Shown here: in pieces, positions 1,232-1,655 of the stretch
Position numbering within the stretch: the stretch's first letter is position 1
Layout of the letters: the number at the start of each line of letters is the position of its first letter
DNA from: a virus
Taxonomy: Duplodnaviria > Heunggongvirae > Uroviricota > Caudoviricetes
Virus record (IMG/VR): IMGVR_UViG_2563366849_000004
Location: 1 to 10,354 of that record
Length of the DNA: 10,354 nucleotides
Direction: 5' to 3' (one strand)
Program-made: the position numbers and the translations under genes
Notes under the pieces: generated by a model
Database searches by the model: none
The model's input: only the letters and a program-made list of their open reading frames with translations
Told to the model about the DNA's origin: nothing

Positions 1232-1618
1232 TCACATCACCGGACAATCATCAAACTCACCTGAACGCGCATCGTTGATGATGTAGGTGATCACCCCAAA
1301 TATCGCATCCGGGCTAGTTCCGTCATCGTGCACCGGTATCTCTTCACGTCTTCCTGTCTGTAAATCCTGCAGGTATGGCCTGGGTGATTTGCGATAACGC
1401 TTAATCCTCATCTCACCTTCCATTCTGCAAACAAGCAATGAGCCGTCACATGGCGTAAATGACGCATCAACTACCAACAAAGCGCCATTAAGAATACCTT
1501 CGCGGTAATGCGTTGCACCCGCTCGCATAAAGTACGTGGCAGCTGGCCTGGCTATGATGCGCTTGTCGAGAGATATGCGCTCTTCTACGTAATCCTGTGC
1601 AGGACTCGGGAATCCCAT
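1232..1618 (-). CDS. UmuD'-like (phage P1 HumD-type) S24 peptidase-fold protein, naturally lacking the UmuD N-terminal arm (128 aa)
   Basis: Translation MGFPSPAQDYVEERISLDKR..PAATYF...LLVVD...IFGVI aligns with E. coli UmuD starting exactly at the residue after the UmuD Cys24-Gly25 autocleavage site (UmuD CGFPSPAADYVEQRIDL...SATYFVKASGDSM...DLLIVD...VFGVV). The position of the catalytic Ser (GDSM) reads GATHY here. Strong SD GGAGGTGA lies 5 nt upstream of the ATG. A LexA box lies immediately upstream. Confidence 0.8.
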   Translation of the reverse strand: MGFPSPAQDYVEERISLDKRIIARPAATYFMRAGATHYREGILNGALLVVDASFTPCDGSLLVCRMEGEMRIKRYRKSPRPYLQDLQTGRREEIPVHDDGTSPDAIFGVITYIINDARSGEFDDCPVM

Positions 1619-1635
1619 AACTCACCTCCGATAGG

Positions 1636-1655
1636 TACTGTATATGCATACAGTA
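1636..1655 (-). promoter_or_regulatory. LexA operator (SOS box) in the promoter of the UmuD'-like gene
   Basis: TACTGTATATGCATACAGTA fits the E. coli LexA consensus CTGT-N8-ACAG with an AT-rich centre; it sits 18-37 nt upstream of the ATG at 1618. Confidence 0.8.

Follow-up and report, generated by a model that had tools for sequence, protein, structure and literature searches.

The window, by which we mean the whole 10,354-nucleotide stretch of viral DNA analysed here, contains a small minus-strand gene, humD, whose product appears from its sequence to be a pre-truncated UmuD'-like protein with the S24 fold. The original prediction had described a stand-alone gene between int and the tailspike block, and the order of genes was indeed found to be int, humD, acyltransferase and tailspike. 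The genes and signals are as follows.

1–1158, plus strand: gene for an IntS-type tyrosine integrase (int), converging on humD.
1183–1216, no strand assigned: hairpin with a 14-bp stem between the converging humD and int genes, from a terminator scan and folding.
1232–1618, minus strand: humD coding sequence, 128 amino acids plus a TGA stop codon at 1232–1234, from the open reading frame list and the sequence.
1622–1624, minus strand: in-frame TGA stop codon two codons 5' of the humD ATG, read from the sequence.
1625–1629, minus strand: Shine-Dalgarno sequence GGAGG, 6 nt 5' of the humD ATG, likewise read directly.
1636–1655, no strand assigned: predicted LexA operator (SOS box), TACTGTATGCATATACAGTA, 17 nt 5' of the humD ATG.
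1674–1679, minus strand: candidate -35 hexamer TTGATC, 18 nt 5' of the LexA box, from cross-species conservation.
1768–1797, minus strand: hairpin followed by AUUUGUU, just past the acyltransferase stop codon (-15.8 kcal/mol, z -3.0).
1805–2842, minus strand: gene for an Acyl_transf_3 membrane acyltransferase.
2915–5032, minus strand: gene for a P22-type tailspike that combines a P22 head-binding domain with a beta-helix.

The window was found to be the exact reverse complement of positions 1265–11618 of a locus from E. coli KTE156 (L004; GCA_000351965.1), and it is bounded by the start codon of int and the stop codon of xis, both belonging to a prophage at the tRNA-Arg(CCT) gene argW. This prophage is flanked by yfdC/mlaA/fadL and, at its other end, by a LysR-type gene, and each prophage end carries a copy of a 16-bp att core, ATGGTGTCCCCTGCAG. 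Positions 1–5362 are 99.9% identical to intact P22-like prophages and phage-form contigs (L005 and L007), relatives which possess a full late operon (gp7, gp20 and gp16) upstream of the tailspike gene. From about 5378 on, the window matches the early-left region instead, and at the junction near 5362–5378 that early-left (erf/abc2) region is joined to the final ~330 bp of the gp16 injection gene. By these comparisons the window is what a recent deletion has left of a P22-like prophage, about 10.4 kb in length. The genes for immunity, replication, lysis and the head are gone, but int, xis, humD, the acyltransferase gene and the tailspike gene remain. Because int, xis and the 16-bp att core repeats are all intact, the remnant might still excise.

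The early-left genes abut the tailspike gene and xis lies far from int, and we therefore considered a misassembled or circular contig. This was rejected in favour of the chromosomal deletion remnant, with attP between xis and int. The odd order of genes arises because attP occupies that position in this phage group (L004 11618–11854; window 1 / 10354); in the integrated state, int sits at one prophage end and points inward from argW, with xis at the opposite end. On the far side of the deletion junction the window encodes an Erf-family annealing protein (5978–6613), followed by an open reading frame ending in the SSB-type tip DDSIPF (6523–6996 as listed, with a shorter call in L004) and then by a homologue of the anti-RecBCD protein Abc2. 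These early-left recombination genes have been cut off from their promoter by the deletion.

The acyltransferase gene lies directly 3' of the tailspike gene and is probably a conversion gene of the O-antigen acetylase type. Its GC content is low (35–37%), compared with about 49% for humD. Two related prophages with an identical humD (L006 and L008) show similarity that ends after the acyltransferase gene and the last ~60–100 bp of the tailspike gene (window 1–2970/3010); the remainder of their tailspike gene gives no nucleotide match, yet a conserved head-binding domain is present. The receptor specificity module has apparently been swapped in these loci, while humD and the acyltransferase gene stay fixed.

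The 128-codon humD open reading frame opens with MGFPSPAQDYVEERISLDKRII and closes with DDCPVM-TGA and, read on the minus strand, gives a protein with the N-terminus MGFPSPAQDYVEE. When this is aligned with E. coli UmuD, Gly2 falls opposite Gly25, the residue exposed by RecA-mediated cleavage, such that M-GFPSPA aligns to UmuD G25–A30. The bases immediately 5' of the start read GGAGG-TGA-GTT-ATG, and the in-frame stop codon among them means that no UmuD-like N-terminal pro-peptide or other extension is possible. The alignment of Gly2 with Gly25 and the upstream TGA together bear out the earlier claim that the open reading frame begins where RecA-mediated cleavage cuts UmuD, and the alignment with UmuD and P1 HumD that had been proposed as a check confirmed both UmuD' homology (about 36% identity to UmuD and 72% to P1 HumD) and the truncated start. 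The same MGFPSPA start is present in 109/120 cluster representatives of the close relatives and in essentially all of 54 species-level loci, with only occasional single substitutions and an ATG in every one. The pre-truncated start is thus a design of the HumD family as opposed to an accidental truncation.

Pairwise comparisons with nine homologues gave dN/dS values of 0.05–0.21, with synonymous sites at or near saturation, and humD is under purifying selection. These values bear on the view that humD no longer functions and is merely a piece of umuD, truncated at its 5' end, that decays along with a defective prophage. The window is a prophage deletion remnant and humD fragments (residues 45–127) are known from Sf101, mEp234 and several Stx phages, both of which would suit such a leftover. 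Nevertheless, a 700-bp stretch around humD is the same in all eight loci that share the gene, intact prophages and phage-form contigs among them, and the start, the Shine-Dalgarno sequence and the operator recur in many genera. Taken with the low dN/dS and the saturated synonymous sites, this makes decay a highly improbable account.

The fragments just mentioned cover residues from about 45 to 127 and lie unannotated near the record ends of Sf101, mEp234, E212 and several Stx1/Stx2 phages; some are frameshifted into two pieces. The annotated attP of phage HK140 overlaps the 3' end of its humD gene. This pattern suggests that the att/int junction is a frequent site for humD and that the gene is often disrupted there.

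The humD protein was assigned to its family by profile searches. It scores 218.3 bits against the NCBIfam HumD equivalog model NF051876 (cutoff 120), with residues 1–128 placed on model positions 1–129, and 83.5 bits against the UmuD subfamily model NF007621, which is below the cutoff of 110. It also matches Pfam Peptidase_S24 and the UmuD-like PHROG 811 (E 1e-47), and a sequence search of the PDB returned UmuD' (1UMU) as the best match at 69 bits, versus 26 bits for LexA. Its identity to phage proteins is 85% for N15 gp26, 73% for HK140 gp28, 72% for P1/P7 HumD and 67% for phiKO2 Gp23. The exact protein is encoded on at least 24 public contigs, where its names vary: UniRef (E. coli KTE156) calls the identical sequence a "HumD family translesion DNA polymerase", and records from E. 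coli KTE156 and elsewhere list it as a "hypothetical protein" or an "S24 family peptidase". Model score, start, absence of umuC, LexA-box sequence and S24 fold, the sequence-testable marks of the HumD family, were all found here, whereas those of a bona fide UmuD (a score above the cutoff, a pro-peptide with a Cys/Ala-Gly site, an intact Ser-Lys dyad and a place in a umuC operon) were not. By all of these marks the gene is an ordinary member of the HumD family.

Structure prediction points the same way. An AlphaFold2 model built on an alignment of 42 family members has a mean pLDDT of 74.9, with values near 90 in the core and low confidence in the N-terminal arm and the last residues. The top matches in a Foldseek search of the PDB were 8gmt, a structure of UmuD on the RecA filament, and UmuD' (1umu, 1ay9 and 1i4v), at E values of about 3e-6 and TM scores of 0.55/0.69. 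The protein is accordingly predicted to adopt the S24 fold of UmuD' and of the LexA C-terminal domain. That shared fold raises the question of a different role, as a LexA- or CI-type regulator, or as an antirepressor partnering the S24 domain of a phage repressor. Some database records do name such proteins "LexA family transcriptional regulator", and LexA-controlled antirepressors are known in other temperate phages. Against this, the 128 residues of the protein hold an S24 domain only, with no N-terminal DNA-binding domain of the LexA/CI repressor kind; the NCBIfam LexA model gives 28.8 bits, far under its cutoff of 111, and both sequence and fold are much nearer to UmuD' than to any repressor. 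We regard a regulatory role of this sort as very unlikely.

The residue aligned with the catalytic serine of the S24 fold had been predicted to be substituted (GATHY), and this was upheld: UmuD Ser60 lies opposite Thr36, and Lys97 opposite Lys73, in a HMMER alignment with UmuD' (1UMU) and in two MAFFT alignments. The change is real but conservative, being Ser to Thr, which refines the initial description. Among 120 close relatives the Ser60 position is T in 98, S in 19 and A in 3, and the lysine is kept in 117. The species-level set is far more varied, with T32 S8 G4 M3 A3 R3 P2 D2 Y1 at the Ser60 position, and K26 R19 M4 and a few other residues at the Lys97 position. The Ser-Lys dyad is thus decaying across the HumD family while the remainder of the protein stays conserved, from which it follows that catalysis is not the selected function of HumD. 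The possibility that catalysis is still selected, as the retention of Ser/Thr and Lys in close relatives might imply, was discarded on account of the drift at both positions in the diverse species-level set. This same drift in the divergent members supports the further suggestion that the substituted serine fits a protein which never needs to cleave itself. Work on UmuD' S60A by Nohmi and co-workers in 1988 is likewise said to point to a dispensable peptidase activity.

The active site could in principle serve another purpose, in that an open S24 site unoccupied by its own arm might act in trans, cleaving host UmuD or a phage repressor during the SOS response. The nucleophile is Ser or Thr and the general base is Lys in 117 of the 120 close relatives (the same fraction for each), and UmuD' itself can reportedly cleave UmuD intermolecularly (McDonald and co-workers, 1998). 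The residue here is Thr rather than Ser, however, and both dyad positions drift widely in the species-level set while the rest of the protein is conserved, such that protease activity in trans is very unlikely.

Ahead of the gene, the original prediction had placed a near-consensus LexA box and a strong Shine-Dalgarno sequence, and both stood up to closer inspection. The box at 1636–1655 is a palindrome with two mismatches to the 20-bp LexA consensus and is the sole match in the window; a match arose in 0/200 dinucleotide-preserving shuffles of the sequence, and the CTGT-N8-ACAG core occurs once only in the window, within the predicted box. The GGAGG motif is part of a GGAGGTG or GAGGTG sequence kept at the equivalent place in related loci. 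LexA boxes with no more than 5 mismatches were found 14–20 nt before the ATG in about half of the 54 species-level HumD loci, whereas in about half of those from other species the 150 nt nearest the gene contain no such box. The humD-type genes of P1 and N15 also carry an upstream LexA-like box, which in N15 lies 14 nt before the ATG.

Anchoring the box-bearing sequences on their LexA boxes uncovered a further conserved element. The motif TTGA[CT][CA] lies 17–19 nt 5' of the box in 17 of 27 such sequences (loci from 24 species together with the window, P1 and N15), and the TTGATC-like hexamer is therefore a plausible -35 element, in which case the -10 element (TACTGT) would overlap the left half of the box. 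As a consequence of this overlap with the left arm, bound LexA would be expected to block RNA polymerase. A strict sigma-70 consensus scan of positions 1100–2000 called no promoter. LexA would thus be predicted to bind at 1636–1655, and SOS induction of humD is inferred from homology to P1 HumD. The HK140 locus is organised differently (L003 2410–3390): no dedicated LexA box precedes humD there, and the gene overlaps a small ORF on its 5' side and adjoins a divergent dinI-like gene, such that two modulators of the SOS machinery are clustered.

The gene is bracketed by two hairpins. For the one at 1183–1216, the minus-strand fold has -23.7 kcal/mol (z -3.8) and the plus-strand fold -18.9 kcal/mol (z -2.8); a UUUUU tract follows it on the plus strand, and it is likely to be a bidirectional terminator. 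The hairpin at 1768–1797 would insulate humD against transcription from upstream. Since these two structures enclose the gene, humD looks like a self-contained transcription unit.

No partner polymerase gene accompanies it, as had been claimed at the outset. A tblastn search with an E. coli UmuC probe gave no match in the window, none in eight loci with an identical humD (L004–L011, flanks up to 10 kb) and none in HumD loci from further species (flanks up to 4 kb). Validation of the probe came solely from its matches in two control umuDC loci, of 50% (L089) and 42% (L079) identity, both of them immediately 3' of a true umuD. Two long ORFs located 3' of humD in two other loci (L014 and L016) were considered as UmuC and rejected because they did not match the probe; judged by their sequences, they resemble a LepA-type GTPase and a membrane transporter. 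Across the loci searched, the absence of umuC appears to be a trait of the HumD family.

To our knowledge, P1 HumD is the only characterised member of the family, and experimental data exist for that protein alone. It resembles the protein described here in its identity over the full length (72%; 128 aa here versus 129), in its MGFPSPA start, in the LexA box 5' of its ATG (17 nt here versus 19 nt in P1), in having no adjacent umuC and in its C-terminal tail, SGEFDDCPV[MI]. The two differ in that P1 HumD keeps the catalytic serine (AADSHH, versus AGATHY with Thr here), in that the P1 LexA site is annotated as shared with a divergent lxr gene, and in their surroundings, with the P1 gene adjoining phd-doc on a plasmid prophage and the gene here forming a separate unit between int and the O-antigen acyltransferase and tailspike genes of an integrated P22-like prophage. 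The proposal that this is the P1 HumD arrangement consequently holds for the truncated form, the LexA box and the lack of umuC and fails for the substituted serine, which instead is a feature of the branch that includes N15 gp26.

The closest phage protein is N15 gp26, which is annotated as UmuD (85% identity) and has the same AGATHY sequence with Thr. The N15 gene is likewise a stand-alone gene with a LexA-like box (14 nt before the ATG) and a downstream terminator, but it is carried by a linear-plasmid prophage and sits between a tail-fibre gene and sopBA. N15 gp26 has been grouped with phiKO2 Gp23, HK639 UmuD and HK140 gp28, and we know of no functional test of it. E. coli UmuD and UmuD', together with the plasmid proteins MucA, ImpA and RumA, share with the protein here the S24 fold, about 36% identity, the conserved Lys97, the N-terminal arm GFPSPAxDYVExRI joined to a core, and LexA regulation of the gene (predicted here). 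Relative to E. coli UmuD, the protein here lacks the 24-residue pro-peptide and the Cys24-Gly25 cleavage site, has Thr in place of Ser60 and bears about 10 extra C-terminal residues, and its gene is outside any umuC operon and has a converging int as its 3' neighbour.

Those extra residues are a trait of the family. The tail RSGEFDDCPVM comprises residues 118–128 (window 1232–1264) and projects roughly 10 residues beyond the C-terminus of UmuD. An extension of the form SGEFDDCPV[MIL] is nearly invariant in the HumD family and absent from UmuD; the wider pattern is [E]-F-D-D-x-P-[VI]-[MIL], with EFDDTPF in one species. The tail is more conserved than the catalytic residues and is kept even in distant members that have neither of them. 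A simple model in which HumD mimics UmuD' leaves this conserved, family-specific tail unexplained. Its sequence loosely resembles the C-terminal tip of SSB (DFDDDIPF), which raises the idea that HumD is more than a pre-cut UmuD' and that the tail docks HumD, or a HumD-UmuC complex, onto proteins that bind the SSB tip, onto RecA or onto another host hub. We consider this quite unlikely; if it were true, docking by the tail would endow the phage HumD proteins with a role in recruitment or competition that is missing from chromosomal UmuD'.

The tail also bears on a second way in which the protein could act, that of modulating or poisoning the host damage response, either through inactive heterodimers with UmuD or UmuD' or by coating RecA filaments; in a DinI-like variant, the coating would tune the cleavage of LexA, UmuD or the phage repressor. 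UmuD and UmuD' are well established to heterodimerise and to bind RecA filaments, HK140 humD adjoins a dinI-like gene, and a conserved acidic extension that UmuD does not have could serve such a purpose. Set against these points, the arm GFPSPAxDYVE common to UmuD' and HumD is almost invariant, and P1 HumD is recorded as functionally complementing E. coli UmuD', not as inhibiting it (P1 GenBank record; PMC7092418). Inhibition or modulation of this kind is, on balance, unlikely.

We instead consider it likely, with good confidence, that humD is an SOS-controlled cargo unit of the HumD family which supplies ready-made UmuD' to a polymerase of the Pol V type. This reading is built upon the anatomy of the unit, its family, the S24 fold, purifying selection, the conservation of operator and promoter and the lack of umuC. 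It also fits what has been recorded for P1, in which a LexA binding site is annotated 19 nt before the humD ATG (P1 GenBank record), HumD is described as an already activated, shorter UmuD (PMC7092418) and humD is called a LexA-regulated SOS gene (PMC9603915).

The unit would comprise a promoter with a LexA operator, a Shine-Dalgarno sequence, the open reading frame and a terminator, forming self-contained cargo of the P22-like prophage. An undamaged lysogen would keep humD off, with host LexA bound at 1636–1655 over the likely -10/start region. Upon DNA damage, RecA would become activated, LexA would cleave itself and humD would be transcribed, yielding a product already in the UmuD' form for which the slow RecA-mediated self-cleavage would not be needed. 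By analogy with P1 HumD, the protein would then dimerise and bind host UmuC and RecA filaments, serving as the accessory subunit of an error-prone translesion polymerase of the Pol V type, and this enzyme could help to copy damaged DNA, the genome of the induced phage among it, with no delay for UmuD processing. P1 HumD is reportedly poorly expressed and is said to complement best from a high-copy plasmid (McLenigan and co-workers, 1999). For the protein here we infer binding to UmuC and RecA, an effect on mutagenesis and a bypass of the UmuD-cleavage checkpoint. The likely benefit would be that damaged templates are replicated once the prophage has been induced (Weigle-type reactivation), or that the lysogen gains a conversion phenotype.

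The arrangement itself is already known, as the family, the truncated form, the LexA site and the absence of umuC were described for P1 in 1999–2004, a curated NCBI model captures the HumD family and NCBI annotation already names such proteins. The humD gene described here therefore adds no new kind of system. A literature search on UmuD-like genes in P22-like prophages found nothing relevant, and three small additions appear to be new to the literature examined: the family-wide decay of the dyad, the conserved promoter design of -35 element and LexA box, and the conserved C-terminal tail. What the locus does reveal is that a P22-like prophage of E. coli, even one reduced to a 10-kb deletion remnant, carries an apparently SOS-controlled mimic of UmuD'. 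Lysogens of this kind could put together an error-prone polymerase while skipping the slow checkpoint of UmuD cleavage, which would be of modest relevance to stress-induced mutagenesis and to the replication of damaged phage DNA.
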